A stretch of DNA of 63,847 bases from Asterionella formosa (Eukaryota). The notes under the pieces were generated by a model. It was not told the origin of the DNA and searched no databases. It saw nothing but the letters and a program-made list of their open reading frames with translations. Below, one piece after another: positions 348-35,604 of the stretch (positions are counted from its first letter, which is position 1; each line of letters begins with the position of its first letter). A program made the position numbers and the translations under genes. The DNA is taken from contig NKIB01013138.1 of NCBI GenBank assembly GCA_002256025.1, positions 1 through 63,847 of the forward strand, read 5' to 3'.

Positions 348-1910
348 TTACATTCCGGCCATGGGGTGGCTGCCAGGCAAAGGATTTCTGTATTGAACCG
401 AAAACATGGAGGAATCCGCATAGGTATTTGTGGGAACAGGTTGGGGAATCGGAGGAAACGATGGGTTGGCCGCAAACTCCTGTTGTTGCTGCTGCGACTG
501 TTGATGTTGCAACAAAGGAACCGGAACAGGGACAGCGTTGCTATTCCTATCAAGCTGAACACGCTCCAATTGAGGAATCAAACTACCCCAAATCTCCTCC
601 ATTTTCTTGTTGTACTCAACTTGCAAATTGATGTAGTCCAAGACAGTTAAACGCATATCTTCCGCTTTTTCTCGCTTGAACCGATCCACTTCGCGAAGGA
701 CACGTTGAGACACAGCCGCAAAGTCTTCCCGGGCCACCTCGCACGCTTCTTGCGCTCTTCGCAGTGACATTTCGGATGCATAAGCCTTGGCTTCTTGACC
801 GGGAGTAGCCCGAAGCTTCATCAGTGTCGTGTTCTTCGATTCCACCTCGGCCATGCATGTTGAATAGGTCAGTCGTTTTTCGTGTCGGCGCTGCAAGGCA
901 AGCTTGACAGCATGAATCATCTTGATGTAATCCTGAAGAGGTTCTTCAAACTGCTGCATTTCCTTCTCGGCGTGTTCACCGCTAAGAACGGAAAGTTGAT
1001 CAGCTGTCTCGCCCATTTTTCCCAGGGCATCGCCCAACGCATCAGCTTCACTCTGACCCAACAAATTGAATGCAAGACCGAATTCAAAGAGTCCATTGGC
1101 GATTTCCTTGCCCTTTCTGACCAGACCAGTTGCCTGTTGCGACACATTTTTCATTTGTATATCTAGACCATGCACATACCGATGAATTTCATCAAACAAG
1201 TCATCGTCTGGGCTCTTGACTAAATCTCCAGCAATAGAAGTTTTGGTCTCGTTGAACCAACGTTTGAGCCCCCCGTCTTGTTTCGGGGGAGCAGCCCTCA
1301 ACATATTGTTCGTCGACGACGCCAAAATGACTTCTCCCTTGGCATTCTTGGCCGCGTGAAATGCGAAATCGTCCGCTCGCAAAAAGGTCTCCAAACAAGC
1401 GGCATCTGCCAACTCAGGATGAACTGCAACTCGACGCAAAAAGCGCTCCAGCTTGGAACGACGGTCCTCAACGAACGAAACGGAAAAGCGTCCGACAGGC
1501 TGCTTCTCTGGCATGGGAGGGATAATGGCACCAGCCTTCTCCATGTGGAGTCGTTCGTAGAGCCAGAAAAAATCCGAGTACCGCCGAAGAACGGCGGAGA
1601 TGGCAGTGTTGGCAAGCATGATATCTTGCTGAACTCCATGAGTGAGAGTTGGTGGTCGGACATCGACACGGTAGGACGTGTACTTGTTCATTCCTTCGGA
1701 GTGCTGCACTGGATCCGAGACCTAACGTCGCAGAAAACAGAAACGAAGCGATCATGGTGAGCTGGCGTTGACTGTAAAGCGGGAATCAGTCACGACACAA
1801 AGCTGGAAATGCTCCTCTATGCTTACCGTGATGTGAGGAGCACCGTCTTCGGGCTTCAGACGACGCTGCAGCGGTGTTGAAGGTGATACTGGTCCTGCCA
1901 TGGTCATCAT
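348..1910 (-). CDS. Sorting nexin, PX + BAR (SNX1/2-Vps5 family); exons 1910-1827 and 1721-348, about 485 aa
   Basis: PX motifs (ITVSDPV..YTSYRV, VLRRYSDFFWL, IIPPMPEK, RRSKLERFL) followed by a Vps5-type BAR coiled coil. A GTAAGC...TTAG intron at 1826-1722 joins the exons in frame. Confidence 0.9.
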
Positions 1911-2020: not shown

Positions 2021-2340
2021 TACCAGTTACCTGGTACCTGGTACCTGGTACCTGGTATGGTACCAGGTACGGTATTCCATGTTGTACCCGGTACCTGGTT
2101 CATGGTAACGGTATTCCTGCTACCAAATTGAGTCACCGGTACAGGTATACATGCTGGCACCTGGTATGCCTGGGTGAGACGAGGAGGAGGGAGTGCTTAC
2201 ACAGTAAGTAATATTCTTACCGGTAATCTACTGCCTATACTTACTACCGGTATGATATTTACAATACTGCAGTACCAGGTACCGGTATCCCACTACAGGT
2301 ACCAGGTACCAGGTACGGAACCCGACGGAGTACCAGTATG
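2021..2340. repeat. TA-CCWGG-type heptamer array in the divergent SNX/EGF intergenic region
   Basis: 2021-2074 reads TA CCAGT TA CCTGG x4 TA TGG TA CCAGG TA CGG TA; further units occur at about 2273-2317. Confidence 0.85.
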
Positions 2341-2671
2341 CATTCTTGGGCTGGCTGATGAGCACATGTGGCTACATTATGTAGCACACAAAGTAGGGTG
2401 CCTGGTACCTATTACCATCAGGCAGCAGCACTTCTACACAGACTCTACGTTGAGCCTGATAAGTGCACTGTACCAGTACACAAGAAATGGAAAATTGCTA
2501 CCAGTAGACGTACATACGCGCCGGGCTGGCATAGTAGCAGCTACTGTACCGCACTGGGGACACCTGTAAAATGGAACATGGAGAAAGGAAGGTTGCAATG
2601 CTACATTCATCACTTCGATAAAAATTCAAACAACCCAAGTTGCTAGGTTTCATTCCATCGTCACCTTCGTC

Positions 2672-4848
2672 ATGCGTCTCCTCCTTCTCCTCCTCGCGAC
2701 TGCTGTCCCGGTCGTCATGGTCGCAGGAACGAATCTTACACGTAATTGTCCTACCTTTGAATGTTTCAACAATTCAACTTGCGCGAACTCCACTGCTAAT
2801 TTCACTCAATTTCTCACACAAGAAGGAGATACATTGGATGTCCACAAAGAGATCCAACGAAATGGGATGCATTGTGCTTGCGAAAAGGGTTGGACAGGTC
2901 TGCGGTGTGCCACGCCATACGAAAGCTGTATTTATTCCGGAAACAACAGTACAGGCCTCAAGTGTTAGTAAGTCATCACTGGTGATCACTTCGTTGCCAT
3001 GTCTTGATTATCGTCCGTTTCTACCAGCGTTGTTTCGAGCTATGCATTCATGCACTCACCCGCGTTATTCAATTCTCTCTCTCTCCTGCAAAATTTTTTT
3101 TAGCAATGGAGGCAAGTGTCTTTCTGGTCTGGCGGATATATATGGCAACGAACAACTCTATTGCGATTGCTCGAATGCCTCACAGACAATCAATGGCACT
3201 GTGACTACGTATGTCGGCAAGTATTGCGATATTCCTAACGCAGCCGACGATTACAATCATACTCACGTCACTGATGCTTGTAATAAAGAAAAGACCCTAT
3301 TTTGCGTCAATGGGGGATCTTGCAAGAATAATTATGAGGCATCGCCCGAAAAACCTTGCAACTGTGGTACCCGATATGATGGGCCGCATTGCGAGTTTGC
3401 CATTGGCACTGTTCCCGTTTGCAATCTGACATGCCAAAATAAAGGAGTATGCCGATTGGGGATTCGTACCTACAGGTTGCATGAAGATGCCTACCTGGCA
3501 GATTTCTTTACCAATAACGTCAACTATCAATACTGCGACTGCCCCTCGCCCTATTACGGCGTTGAATGCGAGTCAAAAACCGAAATGTGCGGCCTATATG
3601 ACTGCTTCAATGGGGGCATGTGCGTGATAAATCGAACCATGGGTAATACCACCGCAAATTGTGATTGCACAACTGCAAATTCACAAGGGAAACAATACGG
3701 TGGCCGGTTTTGTCAATACCCGAGAAGTGAGTTGTGCGACGAAACGTTGACCGAAAACGGTCAACTCTTCTGCGTCAACGATGGAAAATGTCCTGCTGAC
3801 GGGTCACACAATAATTGCACCTGCCCGGATGGATTTCATGGAGCCATCTGCGAATTCAGTGACACAGAAAATAACAACGACAAATACCAAGATTGTCACC
3901 TTAAATGCAACAACGGTGGGCAATGTCGCAACGGCGCCAAGGATACTGACTTCTTGGAAAAGTTTGGCCCTTCACTGGCCCATATCAACGTGTCGTACAA
4001 CGAGAACTTTGAGCATTGCGTTTGTCCAGGTGAGTAAGAGTGGTTGATATATGGACAAAGTAATTCTTGTTTCTTTTTTAACCAGTGGTATTCCCAACGT
4101 AGCTGGCTACATTGGACTAACTTGCGAATATGAAGTGAAGACGTGCAAAGATAAAAATACAGCCTGCTTCCTCGGCTCTCATTGCGTAGATGAAGAAGGT
4201 CTCACCAGTACATGTGACTGTGAAGCTGGTTTCAATTCCATCAACCAGATGGCTGGAAAGTACTGCCAATATCAGGCAACCAGCATATGTACTGAGGATG
4301 GAAGGGTTGATTTATCGCGCAACAACTTTGCTTTCTGTGTCAATCACGGAAAGTGTAAGGGTAATGCCACCATTGAAAATGGAGGACACCCTGGGTGTAT
4401 TTGCGAAGCTGGATGGGCAGGGTAAGAATACTTGATAACCTTTTTTTTAAGTTGATGACTTTTGGCTTTTTCTGACCTGATTCTCGACAACAGGGAGCAT
4501 TGTGAGTTCTTGTTAAGCGAGCTCGTTGCAACTGCAACTCAGGCTCCTCAAGCTGCTCCCAACAAAGGGAGCTCCTCTGGCTCGGGAGCGAGAGGTTTTG
4601 GTATCTTTCTTCTTACCGTTGGCTGTATTTTTGCCGCAGGAGGTATTGTGTACGTTTTGAGAATAAGAAGGAGGCGAGCCGCCGCTATAAAAAATATGCT
4701 TGGTCATCACGATAACATTGCTCCCAATACTGGAATAAGTGTGTATTCATCACCATACTTCAGTAATTCTCCAGGAGACGTTGTCGTTGATCTTGGCCCT
4801 AGCACAGACTTGGACGGAAATGAACTTCATAATGTTGAGATTATTTAA
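2672..4848 (+). CDS. Type I membrane protein with multiple EGF-like repeats; exons 2672-2967, 3104-4029, 4103-4421, 4494-4848, about 631 aa
   Basis: Signal peptide MRLLLLLLATAV, many CxNGGxC...CxCxxG[YF]xGxxC units, TM helix FGIFLLTVGCIFAAGGIVYVL followed by RIRRRR. Three GT-AG introns keep the frame (1896 nt in total). Confidence 0.85.
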
Positions 4849-6050: not shown

Positions 6051-6999
6051 TCATGTGAAGGATTTTTATGATTGATGATTCATTAAAGAACTTCTTGATC
6101 AAAGATTATAAACATTGTAGATTTTATTATCACAATCAAATATTCATGTGTATGACATGTACATATCATACATATAGTGATGCTATCATCAAAAAAATTT
6201 GTGCCAGTATCGTACGCTACCCCCGTGATCTTAAAAATACGATATTTTTTATTTGTATAAGGGAATTGAGCCGGAGAAACTCAAAGGATGCGGAATGGCC
6301 CCAGAGAAATTTTAAGAATCGTTGCAAAAAAATTTCTTCCATAGGGAGTACTACTGTACCAGCCAGGTAGGCAGGTGCCAGGCGGTAGTTAGTTGGAGTG
6401 AGTGAATGCACAATATTTGGGCTTCTCTTTTGCTAGACAAGCAGCCATACTACGGGTACTTTCACTTTTCTGTCATACCTACATAGGTATACCTGCAAAT
6501 TGCGATCATTTTGCTGAAATTGATAACGTGACTCAGGATAGGCGCTTAGTACAAAGAAAACGTCATCAATTCATTCCTTAAAACCGTCTGTAAGATCACC
6601 ACTCCTTCGTGGTAAAATAGGTATTACACTAATTTTATTCTTCTAAATAGGGAAACGTCAAAATGTGGGCAAACCGCTTACAAAAAGCAAATGGCAATGA
6701 CTTGTAAGGGTGTGTAGCCTAAAGCAAAGCTAAGCAAAACTAAACGATAGTAGTAAGCAAGTCTTGCCAATGTTGCTTTATTCCCTCCAAACTCAAAATT
6801 GTTCTAAATTTCCAGCTGAATTGATAAAAAAACCTATCTTAATGAAAAATTTCAAAAAGTTATTGGGATTGAAAATTCGTAACTGCCAGCATCATCATAC
6901 CAGCAACCCAATAAAACTATTATGTACTATGTACGTACAGTAGATACACATGATGTTTTGTATACTATATTTTACTTACTGGTAAACAAACACTTTTGA

Positions 7000-7570
7000 A
7001 ATCTCATCATGCATGCTTCCATCATTCTCATGTCACAATACCTTCTTTTTGTGTCATCAATACAAGCAATCAAATCTGAATTAATAAATAAACTGTTCAC
7101 AACTTTTGCTTTAATTTTTGATGTTGTTGTTTTAGTTGTCTTTCTAGTCGTTGTACCGCTGCTATGAAAAGTTTCAAATCTGTTCATAACATAGCCGTTT
7201 TGAATTGTGAATCTATAAATTACATGAAAAATGAACCATCGGCGGCTTCGATTTTCGTATTCAATATCAGTGTTATTACAATTATGCTTTCACAATTGTA
7301 TTTTCTATTCCGTGCTTAATATATGTACCCAATAGATAGCAAAGCGTCGTTCTCATTTTTCATGGAGATATTTGTTATTTTCGTCATGATCAAGGCTGAG
7401 ACGACATGATGCAGGATTCTCCAGCCACTCACGATGACTACATTGTAATCCAAAGTGTTATACTACTGGTATAAATATGCAAAAGAATCGAATAATTAAA
7501 GCTAAATAATTATGCACAAGTGCTTATGGGGGCTACCTTGGGTACCCTGAGTGTGAGTCCAGCCAGCATG
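7000..7570 (+). repeat. Dispersed repeat A, copy 1 (homologous to about 52200-52718)
   Basis: Colinear shared blocks such as AAAGCG(T/A)CGTTCTCATTTTT..GAGATATT, GGATTCTCCAGCC and GTACCCTG...TCCAGCCA. Confidence 0.7.
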
Positions 7571-7609
7571 CATCATTTGGTGTAATAAAAGTAACAGTGT
7601 ATCAAAACA

Positions 7610-7812
7610 TTTAATAGTATGCTATTATTAAAAAAATTGACCATTTTGGAGGTTGTGAAGTCGCGCTTTGGCCCCATAGGGCCTTAGACCTGCTTGTTGT
7701 CTGCCTCACCACCCAGAAGCCAACATGGGACTACATATACAAAGCAGGTGGAGAATGTGTGGTGAATCAATCCCGCCACCTCGGAATGCGAGCTAACCAA
7801 CTGCGCTTGACC
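7610..7812 (-). mobile_element. tRNA-Ala-derived SINE, copy 1
   Basis: Minus strand AGTTGGTTAGCTCGC..GAGGTGGCGGGATTGATT..CATTCTCCACC resembles the 3' half of tRNA-Ala. The 25-mer GGCAGACAACAAGCAGGTCTAAGGC is identical to the copy at about 52846. Confidence 0.75.
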
Positions 7813-8053
7813 TATGGTAGGCACCATACTAGATATAATATCTAAGATGGTATAAGTCTTACAAAACTTCAACCTTATAGGCTCTTCTATACAGACTATA
7901 TACTTGTTCTTACTCTCAACACTATAGAGACTAACAGCAATATATACAATGTAGCTCATAATACATATTGCATTATGTACCCAAAACTAGATATATGATT
8001 ACGTCATAACTATTGGTACATATGTTCCTATGGAGTTGACTTAGCAATACTAG

Positions 8054-8158
8054 AAGGCCCTTGTGAATCCCCGCCCAGTGATTCCCTTGACTCCTACTAA
8101 TATGTCAGTCATGGACCCTACTCATCAAGGCCCTTGTAAATCCCCAGTGATTCCCTTT
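8054..8158 (+). repeat. Two direct copies of an approximately 33-nt unit (AAGGCCCTTGTRAATCCCC..AGTGATTCCCTT), 73-nt period
   Basis: Copies start at 8054 and 8127. Confidence 0.8.
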
Positions 8159-8962
8159 AACTATTAGCTAGCATAGAAACTCCAATTATTAAGATCACTT
8201 TAATTACCAAGCACCTACTACTTTATTCTTGACATTCGTAGGGCAAAGCTATTCCCCTGTGCATATGGTATAATGTTATATTGGTTATCACTATTAGTTG
8301 CTACATACTATGATGAAGCTGGCATGTGAATTTTCAAATTCTAATTGTTATACCAGGTACGGTAAGTACTGTTCATTATTGGTTGTTGTCATCACTTCGG
8401 CCGGAAAAGGCAAAAGATTTTAGAGTTTGGAGAGAATAAAGCAACGAAAGCAAGACTTGCTTACGTTTGGTTTGGGCCGCCCTTGCTTCTTACGGACTTG
8501 TCATTGTCATTTTTTATCCATTTGCCCTCGTTTTGACGTTTCTGCGTTTGGACGAAATAATTTGCATGAAACCTACGTCACAACGTCGTGATATTGTCGA
8601 TTCAAAGAGAAACAATGGTTACTGGTATGTCATTTATTTACGAAGTGTAAAGGTATTTCACCTGGTAGTAAGTTGCTTTACCAGCAGATGCAATTGATTG
8701 CCTATAACAGGTACAAGGTACCTCGTACCAGGTAGTAAACAAAATAAAATGCACACGTATATATTTTGCTTTATGTATAAATATTGACTTGTACCGTTCG
8801 TCGACCTAAACATTCTCTTTATCATCCATCATCCTCGCTTCCCCTGGAACAGTTAGTAAAAAAGAACAACTTTATTCTTCGTTTGCTGCAGGTTTTGTTT
8901 TTCTGTTCTTGAACGAAATGCCAACCGCGAGATATGCAGTGCACCGAACTAAATGGCAAACA

Positions 8963-10195
8963 ATGAAAGCTCGCATGAATGTTGGAATCCGGGCATGGCC
9001 CCTATTGGTAGCGCTAATCAGTTGGACAGCGCTAATAGCTGATGGGTTCATCACAACTGGCGCCCGCAGAAGGTTTCAGCAGACTATATTTCGAGAGGCC
9101 AAGCGGTCTGAACAGTTTCTAGACACCCTAGAACGAGTGTTTTGCTTGTCGGACTTGCACACGGACCACCTGATTAACCTGGAGTGGCTGGAGGAGAAGT
9201 GTGCATTGGATTCAGCTCCTGGTCCGAATGATCTGTTGGTAGTAGCTGGCGACATTTGTCACCATATGCAACGATTTCGACAAACAATTGAAATTATTCA
9301 ATCAACAGGATGCCAAGTACTGTTTATTCCTGGTAACCACGAGACATGGTTGAGTCACCCAAGTCCTGAAGCATCTTCCTTTGAAAAGCTAACCCTTGTA
9401 TATGAGACATGCCGGGAGCTAGGCGTCCATGTTGACAACATACTGATAGGTTCAGCGGCGTCGTACCCTTTGTGGGTTGTTCCGCTACAGTCATGGTACG
9501 ATGGAAGTTTATCGATTGAAGGATGTGAAAATTTTTGCATCGACTTTAAATACTGGCCTTGGGCCGACTTTCAACGCTGTGAATGGGTAAATTTTGTCCC
9601 TGAACAACTAGATGCTCTGAATGCGAGAATCCCGATTGGCCTTGCCGATCACTTTCACCAAATTAATGAACATAATCTTAAGGAAGTTCGCGTGTCCCTC
9701 GCCGAAGAACCTTCATTGGGACTCATGACCGTTTCGCACTTTCTTCCGAACCAACGTTGCTTGCCAGATTGGAAAGATCCACTTGCTACTTGTTTTCGAA
9801 GCGACGAATGGCTTGATCATGGTGCAACAGGAATGTCGGCTAAATTTGCCAAGGTGGCCGGATCCAATGGACTGGATGCGCAGCTGCGTTCTCTTTCTCC
9901 AGACAGTGGAAGTCATATCCACATCTTTGGTCATTCTCATCGACCAAAAGATTTTTATTTCCAAGGTGTACGCTACATCCACAATCCTCTCGGTAAACAA
10001 AGAGAACGAGACATGTTCATGGTTTCCCCAAATGTTGACTTTCAGCTCGTGTGGGATACAAGATTGGGAGAAGTACGTGGGATACAGACGATGCGCCTTT
10101 GGGAAGAACAAGGCGGTGGCCTTGACGGCCTCAAGCAGCGGCTAGAAATCTTTGGGCGAAAACGACGAACTGTGAGCACAAGTGGACTCCTGTAG
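8963..10195 (+). CDS. Calcineurin-like metallophosphoesterase, probably plastid-targeted (start could be 8918, 8963 or 8975)
   Basis: Motifs SDLH, AGD, PGNHE, SHF and FGHSH. Hydrophobic signal ends in ADG-F, resembling the diatom ASAFAP motif. Confidence 0.85.
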   Translation: MKARMNVGIRAWPLLVALISWTALIADGFITTGARRRFQQTIFREAKRSEQFLDTLERVFCLSDLHTDHLINLEWLEEKCALDSAPGPNDLLVVAGDICHHMQRFRQTIEIIQSTGCQVLFIPGNHETWLSHPSPEASSFEKLTLVYETCRELGVHVDNILIGSAASYPLWVVPLQSWYDGSLSIEGCENFCIDFKYWPWADFQRCEWVNFVPEQLDALNARIPIGLADHFHQINEHNLKEVRVSLAEEPSLGLMTVSHFLPNQRCLPDWKDPLATCFRSDEWLDHGATGMSAKFAKVAGSNGLDAQLRSLSPDSGSHIHIFGHSHRPKDFYFQGVRYIHNPLGKQRERDMFMVSPNVDFQLVWDTRLGEVRGIQTMRLWEEQGGGLDGLKQRLEIFGRKRRTVSTSGLL

Positions 10196-11104: not shown

Positions 11105-12030
11105 ATTTTGATGTAATGGTATAACAAAATGTATTTGAAGTCAGCAGTAGTTGTATGATGACAAAAACGAAGTGGTCTTGGATTGTCGGAACGAGGAGTG
11201 ACCTCTACTCTTTGTAAGACTTATGGCTCTTCCAGAAATGAAGGGCGGGAAATGACTTCATTTACTTTTCTTTCGGTACAATGTGTCAAGGGTCCAACAA
11301 TAGAAATTATGTTCCATAATGTGCAACGCGCCCGCCAACAAGTTTCGAATTTGTATAACATTCATAGCGGGAGGTGTATATTCAATTTACTTAGAGAACA
11401 TTCGAATAAATCGGTGTATGTACTGAAATTGGTGCTAAAGACAATTGTTAGAACATAAAATATTCAAATTTGGTTTGATATTTTTTCAGATCTGTTCATA
11501 TCTATATTTACATATCCATGTTGATGTTAACATGATACCTGGTACCATCTTTTCTACGTAGCGAGTACCTGGTACCAGAATGCCACATAAGTCAACGGAC
11601 ATGGTTGACGTTTATACGCACTTTTTTATAGAGTGCGTGCATGAAAGGTGAGGAAGCAAGACGAGGAGTCGTGAAGAAGCAAGAACAAATTTATGCCCTA
11701 CATACCAGCAGGAACTCCAAGGGAGAAAACAAACAACTGGTTCTCCGCCACCCGCCGCACCGAGGTCCATTGTGGTACATTCTCCGCGTATACCGGTAGT
11801 ATATTCCGGTACTTGGTACTGACCATTAGTCCCTGCAATCTGAAAATTCATGTGTATGTGTATGTACATGATGATCCGCGATTGTTTCACTTCGTCAGCC
11901 ATGGTCGAGTTTACAACCAGCCACAGTTTTGACTGAGTATTTTGATAATAACACGCATTGATGGTTTAATACACATGGCGAATTACTGGCATCATCTTCA
12001 CTGCAAAACATGCCTCGTCGATAGTTGCAA

Positions 12031-12876
12031 ATGCAGTATTCTCGAACGTGCTGGAAGTCCAATTTCTTGCTACTGGTCTTGACTTGGGTAGTGCCACAAG
12101 TATGCCATGCCTCGCTGTTAGACGACGGCGTTCGACAACAAATTAAAATCATATTAGACGCAATCGGAAGCTGGAAGACAATTCAGGAGACACAGGAACG
12201 AAAGCAGCCCTTTGTGACCCTAACCTTTGCGCAGAGCCTAGATGGAAAGATTGCCCTTGTCAACGACGGGACTACTCTACCTTCGAGCAATTTTCGCCTT
12301 AGTGGCGACGCGTCGCTGCTAATGACCCATGGGTTACGATCTATTCACGACGCCATCATCGTCGGAGGGCAAACGTTTTCCACGGATAATCCAAGATTGT
12401 CAAATAGATTATGGGGTGATGACCAGCCTAGACCAGTGGTTTTGGATACCAGTTTGAGGCATCTCCGAAGACTTGAAGGTACGATTAGAGCACGAAATTT
12501 TATTGTATGTTGCAGCCAAGAGGCAGCTGATTCATATTCCTCGAATGAGCTTCCTTCGGTACAAATTCTTCCTTGTCGTCTTAATTCTGACAGTTCACTG
12601 GACCTATGCCACGTCCTGGAGCAACTGAAGACCACTTTTGGGATTCGTTCTGTGATGGTCGAGGGAGGAGCTGGAGTGTTGTCCTCGTTTGTATCTGCAA
12701 ATTTAGGAGACTGTATTTGCATCACGATCGCACCAAAGCTCATTGGAAATAAAGATGGTATTGCAGCTTTCGCCAGCATAGCATTCAGGCCATTTCTTGA
12801 TTTTGGGGAATCTGGAAACTTTCTGCCTCTTGGTTCGGATTGTATATACCTGTCTCGGTGGCCACACCGAGAATGA
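12031..12876 (+). CDS. Stand-alone RibD C-terminal / RIB7-like pyrimidine reductase (riboflavin synthesis)
   Basis: PFVTLTFAQSLDGKIA, H.LRSIHDAIIVGGQT..DNPRL, PRPVVLD, SVMVEGGA, ITIAPKLIG; hydrophobic N-terminal leader. Confidence 0.85.
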   Translation: MQYSRTCWKSNFLLLVLTWVVPQVCHASLLDDGVRQQIKIILDAIGSWKTIQETQERKQPFVTLTFAQSLDGKIALVNDGTTLPSSNFRLSGDASLLMTHGLRSIHDAIIVGGQTFSTDNPRLSNRLWGDDQPRPVVLDTSLRHLRRLEGTIRARNFIVCCSQEAADSYSSNELPSVQILPCRLNSDSSLDLCHVLEQLKTTFGIRSVMVEGGAGVLSSFVSANLGDCICITIAPKLIGNKDGIAAFASIAFRPFLDFGESGNFLPLGSDCIYLSRWPHRE

Positions 12877-13182
12877 GGATTAAACTACCGGTAGAGCAGA
12901 ACAAAGAGTCATTCTACAGAAAGGTCGCTGTTGAAGGCCCTTACATTTTCACCTGTGTACGCTATGTAACAAGTATTCTTATTATCTGATAAATTTTAGG
13001 CCCTTCAATTTAATTGACTAAGGTACTGGTAGTGACCACTGGAGTTGCATTAGCATCGCAATTATGCCCCTTCTTTGTCCTCAAAATCCTAGCGTCCAAC
13101 GCACTCACTCTTTTAAGCTCTTTAATAACACATAACTTTTCTAGGCACAACATCACGCCTTGTGTAACCTTGCACCCCCTAC

Positions 13183-15185
13183 TCACTTGATGTCAAGCCT
13201 TTCTTTGGCAGGCAAACTCTTGTTCTTCTTGCGATCCTTCCACTCCGCGAACGAGCTTTGATCTTTCTTTGAAAGAGGGGAGGAACTACTTTCGTCGGCG
13301 TGTTCCCTCTTGGCGATCTTTGGGAGAGGTCGCTTCTTCTTGTTCACGACTACTCCATCCACCATTTTATGTGTGCATATGGAATTATCAGGGACGTTGG
13401 TGCCAGTGACAGATTTGGAAGTCAACCCACCATCTGCAGCAACAGGGTTCTCAGCTTTCGACTCGTCAAGCGGTGTGTCCAGGTCACTGACAGACAAAAC
13501 TTCCATCAACCAAGCGGAGACAGCTTCTCCATCCTTGGTTGGCGGGCGCTTCTCGAGCAATCCGTTCCACCTGTGCTCGCGCTCAGCACTTATCTTGCAG
13601 GCACTCTGTGGCAACTCGATTGGTGGAGTTGGTGGAGGTGGTGTAATAACTGGTTCATCTGCAATACCGTTGCTGTGGGGCTCGATGACCGGAGCTACAA
13701 CAACCTCCTTGGCTTCTTCGGTAGTTGTAGTGGTAGCAGCAGTAGCAGCAGCAACAATTGCAACCACATCAGAAGGCTCTTCCTCCTCTTTCTTTGCTGC
13801 CTGCTGAGCGCGAACGGCAGAGGCGTCCTTAGTGGTGGAAGCGGCAATTGCAGCTTTTTTCGTTGCTTTAGGTGTTTCCGTTTCTTCACCGCCAGATTGG
13901 CTCTCGTCATCGTCATTAGAATTGCTGTTCTTGCCGTGCTTGTGCCCTGATGAATGTAGAAGACAGCTATAATTAGAAAAAGTCCTTTCTTTTCTCCGCA
14001 ATGCAAGCAAGCCTTGATTTACTTACTTTTCCTAAAGTTTCGTTTGGCCACGGGCACCTTGCAGTGTGTACAATAGCGGAATTTAATGCCAGCATTGCGG
14101 CAGGCAAAGTACGAGCAGATGAGTTCTTCGCCATGTTCAACGTTTTCGGGGATGACGAAATAAGCAGTCTACAGGCAGGGAACAATTAGAGAACGAGAAT
14201 AGGTCAGCGGCTTACTATCACAAATACCACAAAGCAATATCCCCTTAACACACACCTTGAAGTTGTGATCCATGGGCATTCCACGAGCTCGACAAGGCAC
14301 GACAACTGACCCAGGGGTCTTTTGGAACGTGTCTTTGGAGATTTCGCTATGACGACGGCCCGAAGCAGCAGAGTCGGCGACCCCGGAGCCACGAAGACCA
14401 GCACGTTGTAGGATTGCCTCGGCACTCTCGCCGCCTTGTTGCAGCTGACGGTTAAGTTGATCTTCTCTAAATTGTGCCTCATGTAGCTGCTCTAGCTGTT
14501 GACGAGCAGCAAGAGCTCCGAGACTTCCAGGGCCGCCAGCAGCAGCAGCCATAAGCTGGCGACGCTCCATTTCCTCGAGTCGCTGCAGTTCGAACTCTTG
14601 CTGAAGGGGGTCCATACCAGGGCCGCCGCCTCCGCCAAGGCCCATTTGCTGTTGCATTGCAGCAGCACGAGCGAGGAGGAAGTCGTGGTTTTGGAACTGG
14701 GTAGCCTGGCGAATCTGAGCAGCAGCAACGGCGGAGCGAATGTCAGAAGCAAGAGCGAGGGCGGCAGCTTGCTGTTGCTGCTGTGCAGCGAGGAGATTGG
14801 CGTTCTGGTTGTAGATATCACCATCACCGCCGCCTCCTCCGCTTCCCCCTCCTCCGAAGCTGCCTCCTCCTCCAAAGCCGCCACCGAGACCTCCTCCGAG
14901 ACCACCACCAAGGCCTCCTCCGAGACCTCCAGCACGAAGATGAGCGAGGATAGCATTGTGCTGCTGAAAGACCCCCTCAGCACGAGCAGATGCAGCTTGA
15001 CGCATGTGTTCTTCGAAGCTTCCTTGGTGGTCGACGGATCCTCCAGAGCCTTCAAGCTTTCGAGAACCGCCGTTCTGTGCTCCTGAAGGGCGTTTATGTT
15101 GCGCATCGGCAGCGTGAACAAGAAGAGATAGAGGAGAGGCTTCAGAGGCCTCGGCGGATGGCTTACCCCCGAGTTGACGGTTCAT
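13183..15185 (-). CDS. Gln/Ala/Gly-rich protein with a CRARGM...Cys/His putative zinc-finger domain; exons 15185-14256, 14168-14027, 13946-13183, about 611 aa
   Basis: Two GT-AG introns join VPCRARGMPMDHNFK|TAYFVIPENVEHGEELICSYFACRNAGIKFRYCTHCKVPVAKRNFRK|RHKHG in frame. Basic NLS-like patches occur at the C-terminus. Confidence 0.75.
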
Positions 15186-15400
15186 CTTCAGAATACGATT
15201 GCGGGTGCAATGAAACCGTTTGAAGCTCTTTTGTGTTTTTTCGAATCAGAAGCTTCTTGGCAAAGCAACGTTTATGTGCGTGTTGCTTTGTTTCCACGGT
15301 TTGTGTGGTACAAGAATTACCGTGGGATGTTTGGGCAATTGGGAGCATCCTACCTTCAGCTCACTACCTCCTCGACCATGACCACAAATCACTCCATGCG

Positions 15401-15779: not shown

Positions 15780-16930
15780 GGTACCTGGTACCGGAACCAG
15801 GTAACAGGTACTCCAACCAGGTAGCTGATACTGTACCATTGGTACCAGGTAGCTTCCGTTATGTGCATGTACTCCCCGCATTCAGCCTCTAGAGTACATA
15901 CTTTACCAGGTACCGGTAGCTCAATTCAAGATGAACATCGGTTCCTCGAGGTACTGCTACCTGGTAGTGGTAGCCAGTAGCAGGACAATACTGTCCATGG
16001 GCTGTGCCGGAGTGTCCTAGTACTGTAGGGTACCAATACTGACTTGGTAGCAAGAAACATGCTATCTCGTTCAAGTCCTCCTTCCAACGTAACGTGACAT
16101 TCAGTTGTAGAACGGATGCCTGGTACGGAACGCTTATCAACGGATTTGCAATACCGGCACGTACCAGAAATATAAATATGCAATTAGTTTATAAAATTTA
16201 TACTCCGAGTACCTGTATGTTGAAATGCATGCATCGCTGTCTAGAAGGCCGCCTGCTGTGGAATGATGTACTCCGAGTAACAACACAAAGTTCGAAATCT
16301 AAAATATCAACGCTTTCCTCCAATCAATCGAAATGCATTTTCTTTCACAACAATGATGTACCACGTTTTACACGTCGACAAAGCCCATGCGTCAAGTGTC
16401 GTCTACGACAAAAATTCGCGTCGTAAAACCATCGTTTGTATCATCATATGTACAAGGTAACGTGTGCATGTACCGGTATCCTGTTTGTGCCAGTACTGTT
16501 AAAACTGGCACCTGGTACCTTGTACCAGGTACCGGTACATACCAGCTGCTTCTTGTGATGAGGACCGCGTATGACACTTTTGCTTACTAGGTAAGCAGTT
16601 GTTCAAGCAGTCACATCCCGGTACATAAATAGGGAGTTGATCTTGTCTTGCGTATTTTTTTCGTGTGTTGTCATCAATCCTCAATGAATTGGACTACCGG
16701 TACTGTTATCTGATATATCGACATTTAATTTACTATGCAGGTTCCTGAATTTGAAGCAATAAAATTTTTTGAGTCAGACTAGTCAAACACGTACTTTTAA
16801 GGTATAAAATAATTATGTATTACACTCACCATTGTCCTGTTACTTACATTATCATATACATATAATATTACTGGTAGACTAGTACCTGGTACCTGGTACC
16901 TGGTACCTGGTACCTGGGTATACAAGGTAT
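15780..16930. repeat. Clusters of TA-CCWGG/CCGG units (about 15780-15970, 16510-16545, and (TACCTGG)5 at 16883-16917)
   Basis: Read directly from the sequence. Confidence 0.8.
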
Positions 16931-19125: not shown

Positions 19126-20799
19126 CGCTATGCCGCCCGCTCAAACTAGTAGCCGAGAATTTGCGCGCATGCCGTTTTTACGCAGTATCGGTGCGTAAAA
19201 ACAATTTAAACAATGACACCGGTCTATGACGTTCGTTTTCGTACAAAGCGACTCCATCAGCCGCCATGACTGTAGTTATGTTCAAACAGCACAAAGGATG
19301 TCCCATTACAGGTTTCGATACCGGTACTCACGTTTCGATTTGATCGTTGTTGTGGGTTAATTACGTGGAAATACTACAGAGCATTTTCTACGCATGCAGC
19401 GGCATAAAAAAATAGCAAAAAAAAGGAAGGCGTGTTACTGTAATAAATTATTTTACTAGCGATGTACCGGTACCCACATTGATATACCGCCAAGCAAGGA
19501 ATTTTCGGGTTGATATAGAGGAGAAAACTATACCAGGTATATTATTTAAATTATAGACGCTCCTCCATGTTGAGACGAAACTTGTTTACATCCCGACCTG
19601 GTGGTTTGAAAACCACTGGGATGGAAGATATCTCAGACGAAAGCGAAGAAGTGGCTGACGAAGATGACAGTCACAATCACAGTCACAGTCATAGCGACAG
19701 TGATAGTACTGACAGTTCCGGTATCGAAAAACAGCCTAAATTTGAAGAGGGTCATATATATTAGTTATCAAAACTAATCTGCTAACCAAATGCTTTGATA
19801 TATTGATACGTTGTTTGATTGATCAATAGCTGTTGCTCATTGATCAATCATTGTTTTGGCAAATGTTATGACTGTACACAGATCACCTTACGTGTATGTA
19901 AACCTTGTACCCAACGATGCTATCAGAATGAACTCTGTGATTCCTATTTGAATGCTCTGCCAGTACATGCTTTGATCCAATTATTGTAAATGTAGTATTC
20001 GTCATTATCTCTCCATTCGCATATCAGTAATCGAATTTCTTACAAGCCATGTGCGTTCGTTGAATCCCTTATGAGCTACCTTCTTGCAGGGACGACGATG
20101 ATCTCAGTCTTATGAAAAATGATATGGTCTCGATTTTGATGGGGAATTATGCTGGCGAAGTTTGATTGTTTGTTTGTGACTCGAAATCAAAAAGCTTTGG
20201 TCAATTTATACGACAGAATTGGAGAACGATGCATTGAAGTCCATACCCGATTCCAATTCCAACCGAAATCAAGAAGATAGTACGTTTTGATCATAATTCG
20301 CCCATTGCGAACATCGATCCCTATTTTGAATCTGTTCTTCAAGATGAGATGTGGATCAAAGTGAAGATGGACCCGATGGCGGCGCAGTTTGTTGCTCATG
20401 GCCTTAATCATGGGTCTTACATTCTCATTGACTAGCTATTGGCGAGCACGTTTGTATGCTGCAGACATAGAGCCGCAACATCACTAATCAGGAAGTAGCT
20501 TCATTTCATTCAGGAAATAGTAGCATCACATGAACCTTGAATAGCAGGGAGTTCGAAAAAACAATTGTAACTTTGCTTAATAACATTGCACTATCCCATT
20601 GTTTTAAGAAATCTCTTTATCGGCAACATCAGAGGCACTATATGATAGGACAGCCTAACCCCATTGCCACACATATACTTTCCACAAAGTGACCGCTATA
20701 TTAATATAGCTTATATAAAAATGGTGTAGCTTGTCCCACACATATGTTCTGGCCACTCCAAAGTGTAAAATATTTATGAAGGTACCAGAACCATTATTC

Positions 20800-23218
20800 A
20801 ATCAATAGCTGATTCCAATGTTGTACAGCAACAATGGTTGTCGAAATGAGCGACCCAATGATGTTGATAAACTTCTCCGTTATGGGGGCGTTTCAAATGA
20901 TCCCTGTATTTTTACTAATATTGTTGTTGCTGGTATTGATACAGAAGAAAAGAGGAATAAGCTTCTGTGCACCATTACGGCCACATTTGAGAAGCATCGC
21001 CAAAATTGGGAACTTTTTTCCTGACAAGCCGATGGAATTTGTCATACCTGTCATTCCAAATAAAGATCACCAACGTCGTGTATTCTCCGTTTATGCATTG
21101 ACACAGGCGAGTGAAAACGAAATAGTTGATGCCAGTTCATCTTATCCCAATACCATTCCAAGAAGTAAAGATTGTGTTGCTTGTATGCCCATGGTAGATC
21201 TTGTTTCTACTTCCTCAGAGCGTTTTATTGAGTCTATCAAATCTGATAGACTTGATATAAAATCTCCCCCTTCCAAAGCAAAGCAAAGCAAAATGTAAAT
21301 TAAAGGCAACTCCAGACATGGTTGCCAATCCGGAAGAAGCAGTCCATGACTTGTCACCAAATAGTTCCGAAATTGTAGAAGTGACTGGGAAAGTAAATTT
21401 AAAAAACAGGTTGAGGAGGAAAGTGATTTGTCCCATTTATCTAGTAGTAAGGAGTTGGAAATATTGAAACAGCACATGATCGCCAGTCTGGATGTAATTC
21501 ATGACTACTTTTAAAAGATTTCCGAAACTGTTGCAAACCCTGAGACAGTAATTGAGCAGGTCAAGGAGATAAGTGATTTATCCTGTAAGGATAAATCATT
21601 ATTGAAATTATTTGATGAAGGAATTCATAAATATTTATGCGAAAGAGCGAGGAGAAGTGAAGAAACACATCAATTACTTGTATCGAAAAAATTGATAAAG
21701 GAAAAGGTAGCAGCTGCTGTTTCGGGATATGGCGACGAATTGGAATGTTTCAACGATCACCTTTATAGTGTTCCACCCTCTTTTTCTTTGTGGAAAGCAT
21801 GTCCTGCCCATTCTGCGTGAATTGCCAAGTATTTGATTCACCTTTCCGGTTCCCACTTCCGTTGGGTCCGGAGTCACATAAGCTTTACTACAATACATAC
21901 TCTCGCTCCCCCTTAGAAGTACGTCAATATTGCAGGAATGAGTATTCCCTTAAATTGTCAGAGAACCAGTACAGGAGCAATCATATAGAACTGGACAATT
22001 GTGCATGTTGTTGGGATATTGAAATTGTGACAGACATTGTGAAGGTCATTGTTCATGAACTGCATCCCTCAAACATTCATGAAATTGTTGAATCTCAAGA
22101 CAGAAATGACTGGAATACTCAACGTCCTTATCCATCTAACAGTTTTTATCTCCAACCCTCCATTGAATTCCTTATTGCGATTTATTTACAAACACGACAT
22201 CAAAAACATCATGTTCTATATTGTTTTGATCAAAATGAAGGCAACGTTGAAGTGCGTGATCCTGAACATGGAGTTAGTTTGAAAAGTCATTTGAAATGCA
22301 TTCACGAGATTGCACGCAAATATCGTATTTGCCCTGGTGTAAATATTAACAAAGAAAAAATTCCCTCCAAAGCTATGGTCAAATTCAAAACCTATTTCGA
22401 AAAATGGAACTCTGGCATGAAGAAGGCTCGATCAGAATTTCGAGAGAGTTTTCTGAAAACATTCAGTGAGATACCAAAAATCCGAGGTTACACCGATGGG
22501 GAACCTTAATTTAAGCTGGGCGGTGCTTTCCGTGGGAAAGACCCTCTGAAATGTTTTATAGCAAAACATTCAGATTCAAAGATTTTTTAACCAACCAAAG
22601 GTGCTGGATGGTCATGTGGTCCCTTTACAATTGTGAAGTTTATGGAATTACTACTGCATCTACGATACAGTGGAAACTAATTTTATGGGGAAACAAAGTG
22701 AGTCACGTTTAACAAAGGATGGTTGGGATGCATTTATGAAAATGAAATTTAAGGGTGAAAATCAAAATAGATTGTCATTTCCTGGTAATCCAAAAAATGA
22801 CGTTGAAGATGCAGTTATGGTATATGTTCTCAACCTCATTGTGGGTTCATGTTGTGACAAAGTTGCAGCAATGGAGTTCAATCCTGAATTCGAGTTATCT
22901 CCGATGTTAACTACAACTGCTCTCCTGAGGTATCTTAGTAAAATGCTTCATCATCCCGTGGAATCTTACCATTGGCATAGTAGTAATAAAGAAACCTTGA
23001 ATTTTGAAAAAGAATACGAACGTTCTTTCGTTGTTGCTGAGGGGATGCAGAAAGTGAGCAGGTATGCTTTTCTCTTGAATGACAGCCAGCATGATATACT
23101 ATACAAAGATTTCAAGAGTTTCTTGAAGGCTTCGGAAGAATCAGGGGATGGTGACAGCTCATTTTCACTGTCAGGTTCTCAAAAAAAGAGAAAAATCATA
23201 AAGATAAGTAAACTATGA
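20800..23218 (+). pseudogene. Decayed transposon-associated gene with a Ulp1/C48-like protease domain
   Basis: HHVLYCFD...EVRDP (His/Asp) and, in the same frame past two TAA stops, IF*PTKGAGWSCGPFTIVKFMEL (Cys motif). Confidence 0.5.
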
Positions 23219-23323
23219 ATTCCGAGGCAGTTATTAAATGTTGAAGTATATCCGTAATAATTTGTATTGTGACGATTAGTGCTGCTTCTCTGTACTTAAA
23301 AGAATATCCCAACCAATCAATTT

Positions 23324-24320
23324 CTATTGATTTCGTGGTGGTAATGCAATATAATAATCTGTATTTTCCATGGCTTCAACGTTTTCTCGTGTACTCATAC
23401 ATTTACTGATTGTAGCTGGTGCTATCAAAGCTGGGACTACAAATGCTGTGGAAAGAATGTTGTAATGCTCAACAACGCTTAATCTAGTCTTCTCATCACA
23501 AATGTAATCACTTGTAGCAAAAAACATGCAAGGAGGAACTGGCATGACAATGGTACTCTTCAAAGAACGTATAGATGCAAGGAGTGTTTCAGTTCCATCT
23601 GAATAAACGACTTTACCCCATAAAAGTAATTTTGCTGGTACACTGTAATTTTTCCCATTTCGACTTTCCCAATTCACTTCAACCCAATCAAACCAAGAAT
23701 TTGATTGATGAATAACACTCTCGTCCTGTTTGCTCAATTTTGGATAGCATCTTAAAATTGTTTTCGTACCGTCATCTTTGGAGATTATAGTAACATGATA
23801 ATAGAAATTGATCCGATCTATCTCTACAGACGTAGTAGTTCCAGTAGAATTTCTGTCCTTGCACCGCTGTACGGCAGAATTTACAAGGTTCTGACTGGCA
23901 GGTTTACCATGTTTGTTGTCTGGGTGAAACAAGCGGTAGTATACTGTCTCATCTGAGCGTTTTCGTTGTGTCCACAGTTGTTTAATAACGCCGGAAATGT
24001 ACCAAACTCCACATTGGACTTTCTCCGCTGAGAAAGATAATTGTTTGGGTTTCAAAACAATGGATGCCTCTGCTTCCTTTCTAGTATTTATCGAATTTGT
24101 ATCTTCAAATTCAGATTCATCTGATTGAACTGTATCAGTACCTCCGTCGCTCACTAACAGTGACATGGTGTAAACACTGGGGAGGAGAACTTTCCTGGCA
24201 AGTGAATATTGTCTTCCTTCATAACTCCTCAATAATATATCATGTTGGAGACAATGTGTATGGCCATTGACTCATTTACTTGGCCGTTTTAATTTCATTT
24301 TCAAGAATGATTCCAGGAAA
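23324..24320 (-). pseudogene. C-terminal fragment of a Plavaka/CMC-like transposase
   Basis: ILRCYP...WFDWVEVNW...VPAKLL and upstream ESFLKMKLKRPSK resemble recalled Plavaka-type C-termini; the N-terminal catalytic region is missing. Confidence 0.45.
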
Positions 24321-27119
24321 CAAATGCTGGTAGGGCAAACCTACAGTTTCACAGTACCAGCGTAGTAATAGGTACAGTTTCACTGTAGCCATGTTATGTA
24401 CGACCGGGTATTGAGACAAAGGGGAAGATGGGAATGTGGAAATTTTATTCATAGATTTTGGTGCCTAATAATCTAACTTAGTATGCTCTTACTGCTTTCC
24501 ACATCTTTTCTAAGAGACTCCGGCCATTCAGACCATCTAAGTTCTTGTTCAGTTTCTGGGTTTTTGGTTGGAGGCACTACTGTGGTCGTAGTCAAAAGGT
24601 TTCGTCGTTCTTAGTGCAACATGATGGAACAGGATGGACTAATTTACTACTTGGCACACATGTTTCAGCAGGATGTTTGTAAGACTGTAAGGACAATGAA
24701 AGTAAAAATAGTTGGTAACGATATCAAAAACAAGGTGATTCGAGGAGATTTAAATGTGTACATGAACTTACCTGGGTGTGACAAAATTTTCTAGTATGAA
24801 ATATTTCACCAACTACTTCGTTTGCATGAGAGGAAGTTATCGATGCAACTATATCCCTTCGTCTTGTATAAACAACAGTGGCAAGGCTGGAATCTTTGTA
24901 TCCACTGATAGAAGAGTTATTCAGGGAAATTTTGCGTTCCAATAGGGCAATCTTATTATGAAGTTGTTTAACACAAAAAACAAAGGATAATGATGCTTCT
25001 GATCAATCACTGTCTCACAATTAAGGCGGAACTGTGATATATATTTGAGATCATCGCCATTATCGAGATGTAAGTCCATAATATTTGTCTTTGGATTATC
25101 AGTGACTGGTGAATTGTCACTCCTTCCTTGAATGGGTGGATAAAAAGGCGGCACCTTCTTGTTACCAGGAGAGGACAGTTCTGACAAAATATCACCATTG
25201 TCAGAATCTGAATCTGAATCTTGATGATGATCTCGCTGCTTTGTTGAAGCAGTGGTATTTGTTACAAACTCTTCGTACTCATGAGACAATTTCGTTACAG
25301 GAGTAACCAAATGCCTGCTATGTTTGACATGAATAGGAAGGCTTTTTTCGAGTCTTTTCATCTTGGTTACTGTTGCGGTACTTCTTCTGAGATCAGTTAT
25401 CAACTCTAGAATTATCGCTTCTTATTATGATTCCTTTACCGGACATGACGATAAAGATGTACAGGATTCAAGGTAAACGGGCCGCTGATGCTTTAAAATC
25501 AAAGAATGAAACAATAATAAAAGAGAAAAGTCTGATATTTGTTTTTGCGCGCCAACATTGAAAAGGGAGTTGGTCTGCCTCTTAGATCATCATACAGAAA
25601 TGTTAATTAATCATTCACTACCTATGTTATAATCTGAGTACTTCGGCATTATATCATAATAATTCACTTCAAGTGTTTTCAATCATGTTCAAATACCTAC
25701 CGGTAGTATTGATCAATACCATAGCCAAACTTGAACGTTAGAACAGTACAGACAGGAACATAGACGAAATATACGGTACCAGGGTAGTTCCCGCTTGGAT
25801 AACGGTGACATACGAGGTCCTGTTACTGTAAGTTCCAGTATTCCTCCATCATGTAAGAACTAGGTACCAGTAAAATCTGACGGTGTATATATGAACCTAG
25901 GATACATGGTGTCCACTGTCCACTATATAGGATATGATAACTGGAACTATATCGGGTACCACCATATTCGAATTCCTGTGAAGTCTTGTATATTTTATCT
26001 AATCGTACATATTGGTAGTAGGGTATTAAATGTTCCTTCGAAAACATTACTAGACATACAGAGATGTAGGTTATACACACTTTTTGAAGAAGAGGAAATG
26101 TTGAGATATTGTTAAAAAATTCATACCGGTAATGCGTTCTATTCCACATAACAAACTAATGAGGGAATGGTAATAGAGAGCCTTCTACCGGTATCAAACC
26201 AACCAGTGAGAAGAGGTAAGTTATATGATTATTTTGCTTCTCAACTGTGGCTACCAAGGGGCTTATGATTGGTACCGTGTGAGACCGGAGGCAAACTATA
26301 AAATTGCATCGCTGTTTGTGTGCGCTGCTACCACTCAAAGTTTCTACACTTCCTCAGGACGAGCGATAAAAATCAACCTAATTACAAGGAAAGAAACCGC
26401 ACTTAATATGTTTGTGCACAATGCTGCAAAGGCTTTGTAGTGTCTGGGTCCATTAATTAGGATTTCGACGTTAATAATATCTTTTCCTTCCATATATGCA
26501 GATGTGAGGGTTAACAACGCAACCTGTCACCCATCAATCAACAGTGAGAGCATACGTAAGTTACTATACTCTCATTTGATGCTCTGTGTTATATAGATTG
26601 TTTATGTCTTCAGTTCGTGGCACATGTGTAGCTGGAGATGCTTTAATCGTTGCAACACTTTTGCTAACATTGATATTATCTCCTCAAAATCATACAGGAA
26701 CCTTGGAGAATGTGGCTTGCTAGTACCATTCTTAATGCAAGCAACAATCAACCATGAGAGCACAGGTAAGTAATATGCACATTGCCTGCTCATACCGAAA
26801 TCGGAGTGATGGATTGTTCATGTGATCGTTTCGTTGCATGTATCTACATTTAGATGGCTGCCTTGCTTACTTGATGCAACAGTTTTGCTAACATTGTTGT
26901 TATTATCTCTTACAGGAAGGTCGTGCAAGAATATTAGAGAATGTGACTTGCTGCCATTCGCAATGGTAGGGGTTCGAATAAAACATCATCAATTTCGTTT
27001 ACTCTCTCATTTCATTTTGAAAAGACAATGATCTAAACATAGCTACCGGAAGTGAAAATTAAGGTATTGAAGACCACTGTGTGCTCATTCTGATAAAGGA
27101 TGCACAGTGGAAAGTATGG

Positions 27120-34593: not shown

Positions 34594-34807
34594 GTTGCCT
34601 TATTCCCTTCTCTGCTTTTCTTAATTTTTCTAGTTTCAATATATTCTATAGACACTCTAAAAGCTAGCGTGGGTGCGAGCAGTTTAGCAGTCAAGGAGGC
34701 AACAGGGAAGTATAATCAACAAATGCAACAATAATATATATATTATGTCATGTCTCAAGCGAATCGCAGCATGCCATTGATGTCGTGGGGAAGGGAGAAG
34801 GTTTAAT

Positions 34808-35270: not shown

Positions 35271-35604
35271 CACAGTTTACATCTGTACGTGCTGCATGTT
35301 GAGTCAATGAGGTTATGGGGTGTTGCCTTCGAGCCAATCGAGCGACGGTGACAGTTCAGGTCATCATTATCAGGCGAAAACAAAAAAGGGCAATTGAATT
35401 GACGATTGTCCAACCCCCACAAAAGAAAGAATGTGGAACTACCTTGGTACTCCGAGGTACTTTACATGATGTCAGGCAGTATCATAACTTCTTTCATCAA
35501 TGCCGACTGTTACCATCAGAGCTGGTGTATAATAGTGCTCAACTTGTGTGAAACATCTCGGGACTAGGCTACCGGTAGCAACATTGATAGTGTCCCTCGT
35601 CGCC

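Follow-up and report, generated by a model that had tools for sequence, protein, structure and literature searches.

The window, a 63,847-nucleotide contig stretch of Asterionella formosa, contained arrays of short spacers set between TA dinucleotides (TA-X-TA). These arrays are very probably excision footprints of cut-and-paste transposons that duplicate TA, stacked in phase. This origin had been proposed by the first-pass annotation, and it is supported by before-and-after alleles in repeat copies, by element termini and their flank statistics, by a bias of the units towards the 5' side of genes, and by contigs from other sequencing runs. The proposal is refined in that CCGG and CCWGG units most likely come from different families. 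Slippage, also invoked there, does contribute, to a minority of the units.

TA-X-TA arrays in the window

In total, 84 strong TA-X-TA units were counted in the window, whereas 30 order-2 Markov simulations averaged 3.7 and never exceeded 8. The main array (2028-2074, strandless) parsed, as described before, into TA-separated spacers, namely CCTGG (four times), TGG, CCAGG and CGG. It lay in the spacer between two divergent genes and on the 5' side of both: a sorting-nexin ORF (SNX; 348-1721, minus strand; PX and Vps5/BAR by Pfam) and an EGF-repeat-like gene of several open frames (2622-4848, plus strand), with presumed exon joining and an EGF_TEN Pfam match below the cut-off. The same parsing applied to the further units at 2085-2338: CCCGG (2085), CCGG (2218), C-CCGG (2242), CCAGG-CCGG (2273), CAGG-CCAGG-CCAGG (2294) and CCAG (2331).

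Clusters with at least three strong units were located at 2028-2506, 15782-15966, 16471-16537, 16869-16912, 19319-19539, 25698-25872, 34821-34886, 35089-35247 and 55923-56257. The three clusters within 15782-16912 were 5' of a minus-strand gene (13183-15245). Those within 34821-35247 occupied the divergent spacer between PDT (33562-34599, minus strand) and NOL10 (35536-37923, plus strand), and the one at 55923-56257 was upstream of a chlorophyll a/b-binding (Lhcf-type) ORF (56411-57007, plus strand). Two CCTGG units and CCGG-G (11536-11801) were found upstream of a RibD_C ORF (12025-12876, plus strand). The reported position 5' of genes was therefore recovered at SNX/EGF, RibD, 15782-16912, PDT/NOL10 and Lhcf. 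Near 8710 and 63535, however, there were single units rather than arrays: CCAGG-CGG (8351), CTGG (8620) and CCAGG-G (8726), within 8351-8737 upstream of a metallophosphoesterase ORF (8810-10195, plus strand), and G-CCAGG (63532) and CCGG-G (63715), within 63532-63725 on the 5' side of a second EGF-like gene. Nor were clusters restricted to 5' sides, since 19319-19539 and 25698-25872 were in multi-copy DNA away from called genes. Pfam confirmed the names of SNX, metallophosphoesterase, RibD_C, PDT, NOL10 and the chlorophyll a/b-binding ORF; both EGF genes were recognized only below the cut-off, and the gene called a zinc finger had no Pfam match. Prephenate dehydrogenase-like and prephenate dehydratase frames stood in tandem at 32261-34599 (minus strand).

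Isolated palindromes were scattered as reported. CTACCGGTAG occurred seven times (12885, 25697, 35569, 44092, 55968, 58648 and 63714), at or near each palindrome named previously. The window had 23 TACCGGTA sites, among them the isolated TA-CCGG-TA at 12886-12893 and those at 25698, 44093, 46953, 52127 and 58649.

Window DNA was also present in freshwater DNA runs, which, with the chlorophyll a/b-binding gene and with Fragilaria relatives of one transposase, suggests a freshwater diatom. Contigs from two runs of other freshwater DNA contained the array region: one from X3 spanned 2041-2772 (3 other letters, 7 gap letters), and one from X7 spanned 2036-2758 (3 other letters, 16 gap letters). 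This support came from contigs, not raw reads. Because the contigs span 2036-2772 with few substitutions, the main array is no assembly error, and the TA-X-TA arrays are real. The 7 or 16 gap letters indicate that the region varies in length. Searching the metagenome collection for alleles of the 2021-2340 array gave 0 matches.

Spacer spectrum and clustering

The heptamer pair TACCWGGTACCWGGTA occurred 5,576 times in the organism's own genome, and its reversed control twice. Both heptamers had the same orientation in 3,074 pairs (55%) and were mixed in 1,500 and 1,002 (45%), a same-orientation excess with a p value of 2e-14. CCWGG runs were mostly short, with 205 singles, 40 pairs, 5 triples and 2 of four.

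Spacers between TAs were tabulated, as had been suggested, in 278,764 non-ORF bases of a 463,847-base sample made of the window and nine contig stretches, which were picked for their repeat hits, making the sample repeat-rich. Far above expectation were CCGG (156 vs 3.3 expected), CCWGG (151 vs 3.6) and CCAG/CTGG (114 vs 15), followed by CCAGGG/CCCTGG (23 vs 0.7), GC (158 vs 57) and CCG/CGG (46 vs 26). CCTG/CAGG reached just 29 vs 15, CCATGG was absent (0) and CCA/TGG was not enriched in the same bases. The high CCAG/CTGG and CCAGGG, the low CCTG/CAGG and the absent CCATGG fit CCAG ends better than CCT or three-base CCA ends. A three-base CCA overhang was thus disfavoured, despite one CCATGG allele (L019). 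The enrichment of CCWGG and CCGG was confined to TA..TA and absent between other dinucleotides.

Of the CCWGG units, 70% were within 100 bases of another (7% expected), as were 34% of the CCGG units. For CCWGG, 8 of 157 sites were isolated; for CCGG, 122 of 332 strand counts were. The flanks of isolated units were varied; G_C flanks were observed for 65% of units.

Before-and-after alleles in repeat copies

Repeat copies were aligned all against all, and an indel was taken as derived if at least four copies covered it and 70% were without it; 16 redundant loci were excluded. This gave 305 derived insertions and 96 derived deletions. TA-X-TA accounted for 19 of the 39 insertions of at least 5 bases (one entered twice), but for 1 of the 20 deletions of that size. 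In the 13 distinct derived insertions with a footprint-like X, X was CCGG (7), CCWGG (2), CCG/CGG (2), CCATGG (1) or a triple (1).

Among the 38 unpolarised TA-C..G-TA rows, an empty site with one TA was paired with a filled TA-X-TA site for 24 single CCGG and 5 single CCWGG alleles; some of the 24 CCGG rows may reflect a single event shared by diverged copies, and three of the five CCWGG alleles stem from comparisons of few copies. Four of these five had no duplication of neighbouring sequence, and the fifth was a tandem duplication. The TA to TA-X-TA polymorphism anticipated by the first-pass annotation therefore exists and is not just whole-heptamer slippage.

Single loci illustrated these gains. 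One copy (L126) gained TACCAGG at a plain TA, an ATAC site, which, with the varied flanks of isolated units, led us to reject a four-base GTAC duplication with a CAG/CTG scar. Two copies (L112 and L128) shared a 22-base gain of CCAGGG, CCTGG and CCAGG in phase at one GG-TA-CC, absent from four other copies. In L019, a whole array was present that two related copies did not have. At one repeat site, F1, a family described below, was inserted forward (L152), reversed (L194) or not at all (L048). The unit sets of the three copies differed, which indicates repeated use of one site. Among the repeat copies, no pair had F1 at a bare TA in one copy and exactly one CCWGG in another.

CCG-ended pogo-type elements

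TA-flanked elements with ends matching the spacers had been called for, and both CCG-ended and CCAG-ended families were found. In the organism's own genome there were 93 matches to DDE_1 (Pfam PF03184), while Tc1/IS630 DDE_3 had 0 matches among 16 candidates. Three families (A, B and C) had a DDE_1 domain over the cut-off and terminal inverted repeats (TIRs). Families A and B ended in TA|CCGT and family C in TA|CAGT. For family A, TA duplication was confirmed by an empty paralogue (L021 vs L139), and many copies were 99-100% alike. Family A had 105 ends; among the 100 listed, 83 followed TA, 10 followed GG-TA and 3 touched a full unit (hand tally), with a background of GGTA at 6.9% of TA. The CCG...CGG ends agree with the spacers CCGG, CCG and CGG. 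Judging from these flanks, pogo-type CCG-ended elements appear to accept nearly any TA as an insertion site, in agreement with the scattered CCGG scars.

CCAG-ended family F1

Family F1 ended in TA|CCAGTAAAAAA on both sides. Its CCAG...CTGG ends agree with the spacers CCAG, CTGG, CCAGG, CCTGG and CCAGGG. There were 150 exact ends; among the 100 listed, 85 followed TA, 62 followed GG-TA and 19 touched a full CCWGG unit (hand tally). The preference for GG-TA was much stronger than in family A (Fisher p 2e-16), with ends carrying C at the first pattern position left out for both families, and part of it may stem from scars that formed next to F1 ends once the element had inserted. In ten F1 elements with both ends, TA was present on both sides in seven and changed on one side in three, and nine had GG and CC outside. 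TA duplication by F1 is thus suggested by flank data, not by a clean empty paralogue. A preference of F1 for TGG over AGG was rejected as the cause of the 1,500 vs 1,002 asymmetry, the counts being background-like (36 vs 15, p 0.20). The first CCA-ended candidate, an inverted pair in L042, was also discarded, as the repeat continued past TA and was no element end.

Complete F1 elements were 0.7-1.1 kb or 3.1-3.5 kb long. Copies were ~90-96% alike, against 99-100% in family A, so F1 is older than many A copies. Long copies were located at L152:3854-7384, L194:343-3882, L195:313-3693 and L196:322-3373, and reading frames were broken in all four long copies read. The F1 protein had 213 relatives. 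The motifs LLLDGHGSRF and YWQVGDS were conserved, and 37 residues separated the two aspartates.

The F1 protein had no match in Pfam, scored no better than shuffles against a local DDE_1 profile, gave nothing significant in a PDB sequence search with the F1 alignment and, as a model, had no Foldseek match at E 0.001. Language-model features, on the other hand, gave an atlas score of 0.95 with DDE_1 in all 30 hits. The two aspartate motifs were in register over 125 columns, but with a probability of 2%. For the predicted fold (pLDDT 77), the top 11 matches were integrase/transposase cores, including mariner-type ones (Z 4.3-6.6, rmsd 3.1-5.0, 101-131 aligned). From atlas features, motif register and fold, F1 is a candidate DDE transposase, and possibly an uncatalogued pogo-related clade of diatoms.

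CWG-duplicating MITEs

Two sister MITE families, F2 and F3, were associated with the arrays. One F3 copy of roughly 90 bases (34897-34985, strandless) was inside an array region of the window, its left flank degenerate. F3 had 977 ends, 561 of them after TAC and 43% without TAC. Among the 100 TAC-flanked ends listed, 22 touched a full unit (hand tally). One end reads CCAG and the opposite end CCTG. In 11 of 12 facing F3 pairs, and in 7 of 7 of a second set (two shared), CWG was directly repeated, and an empty paralogue with one CAG confirmed CWG duplication for an F2-type copy. The two families hence land on TAC-CWG-GTA without duplicating TA, and the flanks indicate that they use arrays as a target rather than make them. 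No CWG-CWG double scars were present in TAC..GTA context. The seven paired F3 copies read had no frame over 82 codons, and none of the 150 DDE_Tnp_4 matches in the organism's own genome was linked to F2 or F3 ends. The window also contained, at 6496-8464, a nested inverted-repeat element related to the F3 ends, with dozens of diverged genome copies.

Position relative to genes

Distances were measured from the called coding starts, not from TSS, of 56 genes predicted with an approximate codon model and of three more that were annotated manually. On the 5' side, CCWGG density was 0.44 per kb at 0-250 bases, 2.39 at 250-500, 1.95 at 500-1000, 0.59 at 1000-2000 and 0.14 over 2000 bases. On the 3' side, the respective densities were 0, 0.47, 0.12, 0.38 and 0.19. 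Units were therefore denser 5' of genes than 3' or distal, as expected by the first-pass annotation. At least one unit was found in 20 of 54 5' flanks but in 5 of 49 3' flanks (p 0.002), with three 3' flanks that adjoined a 5' end set apart. Inside genes there were 0 units in 86 kb. Convergent spacers (n = 9) had 0 units and divergent spacers (n = 4) had 15. The bias persisted when the window was excluded. Repeat-masked DNA held 17% of the non-genic CCWGG units, compared with 41% of TA.

Formation of the arrays

An element would insert at TA and duplicate it; on excision, a few terminal bases would remain on each flank, and end-joining would seal them into TA-X-TA. The spacers CCG, CGG, CCAG and CTGG equal the first or last bases of the elements, and CCGG and CCWGG would require bases from both ends, a plausible join. 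Families A and B, with CCG...CGG ends, would leave CCGG, CCG or CGG, the ends being joined through CG, and with little flank preference their scars would be scattered. F1, with CCAG...CTGG ends, would leave CCAGG, CCTGG, CCAG, CTGG or CCAGGG, in either orientation. CCAGG or CCTGG would arise from a three-base overlap with a central mismatch, and CCAG or CTGG from a four-base overlap. The cut would be staggered either by four bases, the overlap being mismatched, or by three, followed by trimming.

We infer that F1 made the CCWGG units and that its scars feed back on its targets. Each scar would place GG ahead of one of its TAs and CC behind the second, giving a better F1 target, and arrays would grow in phase. 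In a toy model of 25 events, with four runs per setting and a preference weight of 36 (measured odds about 36), 52-80% of units were within 100 bases of another (observed 70%), and 72-84% had G_C flanks (observed 65%). When the preference was removed, there was no clustering. Clustering can thus be explained, in this model, by sequence preference for GG-TA-CC. Sequence does not explain the 5' bias, for which the candidate causes are open, accessible chromatin, tolerance, and purifying selection elsewhere. Random element orientation would give half same and half mixed pairs. The observed 55% and 45% leave room for some slippage, which would supply a minority of units.

Alternative explanations

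The position of the units could also mean that the arrays are a host promoter signal, a protein-binding or nucleosome-positioning motif under selection, with footprints at most as seeds. We consider this unlikely. It would account for the strong 5' bias (CCWGG densities of 2.4 per kb at 250-500 bases and 2.0 at 500-1000, compared with 0.47 and 0.12 at these distances on the 3' side and 0.14-0.19 farther than 2 kb away), for the contrast between 0 units in nine convergent spacers and 15 in four divergent ones, which stays without the window, and for the low repeat-masked share (17% of non-genic CCWGG vs 41% of TA). It does not account for identical units arising de novo, with TA duplication, within transposon copies. 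Nor does selection agree with the decay of the units, which at ~5% per base is like that of F1 copies, with ~64 one-change variants beside 220 perfect GGTA..TACC units (among 25 words listed, summed by hand). In addition, 34 of 54 5' flanks had no unit, and array regions differed in length in other runs. Promoter function and footprint origin would not be mutually exclusive, and function is a candidate only. CWG methylation, a further signal considered, was set aside on a weak indication: CAG and CTG were not depleted in repeats (1.17 and 1.20), with CG at 0.71.

It is very unlikely that the arrays are a heptamer microsatellite produced by slippage, with hairpin-driven A/T switching as the origin of mixed orientation. 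The quasi-palindromic arrays, the 55% same-orientation pairs, pure runs such as 16883-16912 and the tandem duplication in one of the five single CCWGG alleles would fit, and the same-orientation excess together with the four-unit pure runs shows that slippage contributes. Gains that copy their neighbour and homogeneous runs were nevertheless not the rule, as 4 of 5 CCWGG gains were non-duplicated and 45% of pairs were mixed, so that palindromic pairs were not in excess. Most runs were short, the CCGG alleles had no template alongside, one insertion carried three different units, and unit lengths ranged from 1 to 6 between fixed TAs. Slippage as the sole cause thus appears largely refuted by the sequences. 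Hardly credible is the abundant 90-base F3 as the source of CCWGG units. Its CCAG and CCTG ends would anneal into CCWGG, 561 of 977 ends follow TAC, and a full unit adjoins 22 of the 100 TAC-flanked ends listed; yet 43% of ends are without TAC, and what stays constant in the flank is CWG, directly repeated in 11 of the 12 facing pairs. For its sister family, an empty paralogue confirms CWG duplication, and such a duplication is described for NuwaI elements (PMC4482050).

Comparison with known systems

Excision footprints of TA-duplicating transposons offer several parallels. Tc1/mariner transposases make their cuts within the element, so that 2-4 of its terminal bases stay behind between TAs, and Sleeping Beauty footprints read TACAGTA/TACTGTA (PMC6943129). 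The units resemble these in TA duplication, in terminal bases between TAs and in orientations that differ at the central A/T. With five bases, CCWGG is above the 2-4 given in the accessible part of that source. In contrast to the single engineered excisions described there, the footprints here comprise CCWGG (five bases) or CCGG (four), number in the thousands across a natural genome and are chained in phase. A Stowaway MITE in Triticeae underwent repeated insertion and excision at one site (PMC1925063), a likeness in independent insertions at one site with several distinct footprints. That case, however, concerns one locus over the history of the tribe, and chained arrays, a genome-wide repeat or a target-improving scar are not reported in the accessible part of the paper.

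Families A, B and C are like pogo/Tigger/Fot and Lemi1/Emigrant in DDE_1, short TIRs, TA flanks and deletion derivatives, and Emigrant empty sites carry extra TIR bases (PMC1636448). F1 differs from pogo-type elements in that it misses Pfam, is DDE_1-like only by language-model features, motif register and fold, and has a strong GG-TA-CC preference. CWG target duplication defines NuwaI elements of the PHIS superfamily and is common to F2 and F3. Unlike NuwaI, as far as the accessible text describes it, F2 and F3 have no transposase tied to them, and their wider site TAC-CWG-GTA is the scar of another superfamily; that text does not mention diatoms (PMC4482050).

Genome-wide arrays of stacked footprints were not found described in the titles and abstract openings of open-access literature. 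Excision footprints usually pass for infrequent by-products of transposition. In this genome they appear to be the most frequent words in non-coding sequence, building tandem arrays without slippage via a target-improving loop. This would give simple repeats and lineage-specific promoter motifs a different origin, and it cautions that what motif discovery finds in genomes of this kind can be transposon scars. From the arrays, the past jumps at each locus would be countable. A more far-reaching version, which we regard as doubtful, is that they are a self-writing transposition record turned promoter architecture. One family would write and re-target the heptamer, and CWG-duplicating MITEs of an unrelated superfamily would land there. 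The scars would be the genome's main source of small insertions, and the host would read the arrays as a promoter signal or keep them as an insertion sink sparing coding DNA.

Other scars and elements

The derived insertions (L001-L201; window 20642, 21442, 26015 and 26721) were mostly three or four bases long. Of 137 derived 3-base insertions, 118 consisted of a dinucleotide duplicated around a C or G, as did 65 of 81 after removal of tandem duplications (random insertions 8%, tandem duplications 71%). In 47 of 63 derived 4-base insertions, GC, and never CG, was between the duplicated dinucleotide. Any dinucleotide was used, TA most often. The single C/G spacers noted earlier in the arrays, and the GC spacers, belong to this general scar and not to TA alone. 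A hairpin check against the complement of the flank fitted one flank in 42 of 65 scars and failed in 23. In the contigs examined, no convincing G...C-ended family with a 2-base duplication was found from which the NN-C/G-NN and NN-GC-NN scars could derive. Scars of three bases preserve the reading frame and could introduce extra residues into proteins; an indel spectrum so rich in insertions, and in three-base ones, would bear on sequence alignment, on dating and on how proteins evolve in the lineage.

A young DDE_Tnp_4 (Harbinger/PHIS) family starting with AGGG or GGG could not be tied to the dinucleotide scars. Its left end is AGGGTCGTTC, and dozens of near-identical copies break contigs (e.g. 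C584:31422-31826, C2310:23674-24078 and C13060:64377-64781); from these sequences, it looks recently active. A 1.9-kb stretch between inverted repeats starting with GCAATT was found in the window at 58031-59921. A related end delimits 8.8 kb of C11255, where GT is present on either side. These stretches are possible members of a G...C-ended family with a 2-base duplication.

Further repeats were observed in the window. An element at 53850-55677 has terminal inverted repeats starting with AGAGCATCGCC and TAA/TAG-like flanks, and its ends presumably resemble Tourist/Harbinger. A broken Mutator-like transposase (PF20700) in two frames was at 44615-46289, and a DDE_Tnp_4 fragment at 43001-43363. 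At 19750-25400, a multi-copy repeat, its copies ~90% identical, contained several open frames and matched nothing in Pfam. The L112-L140 family is a 1.24-kb TTAA-flanked element with ends TTAAGGTTGCTGC and hundreds of candidates; its copies occur nested and mirrored, and CCGG scars accumulate in them.
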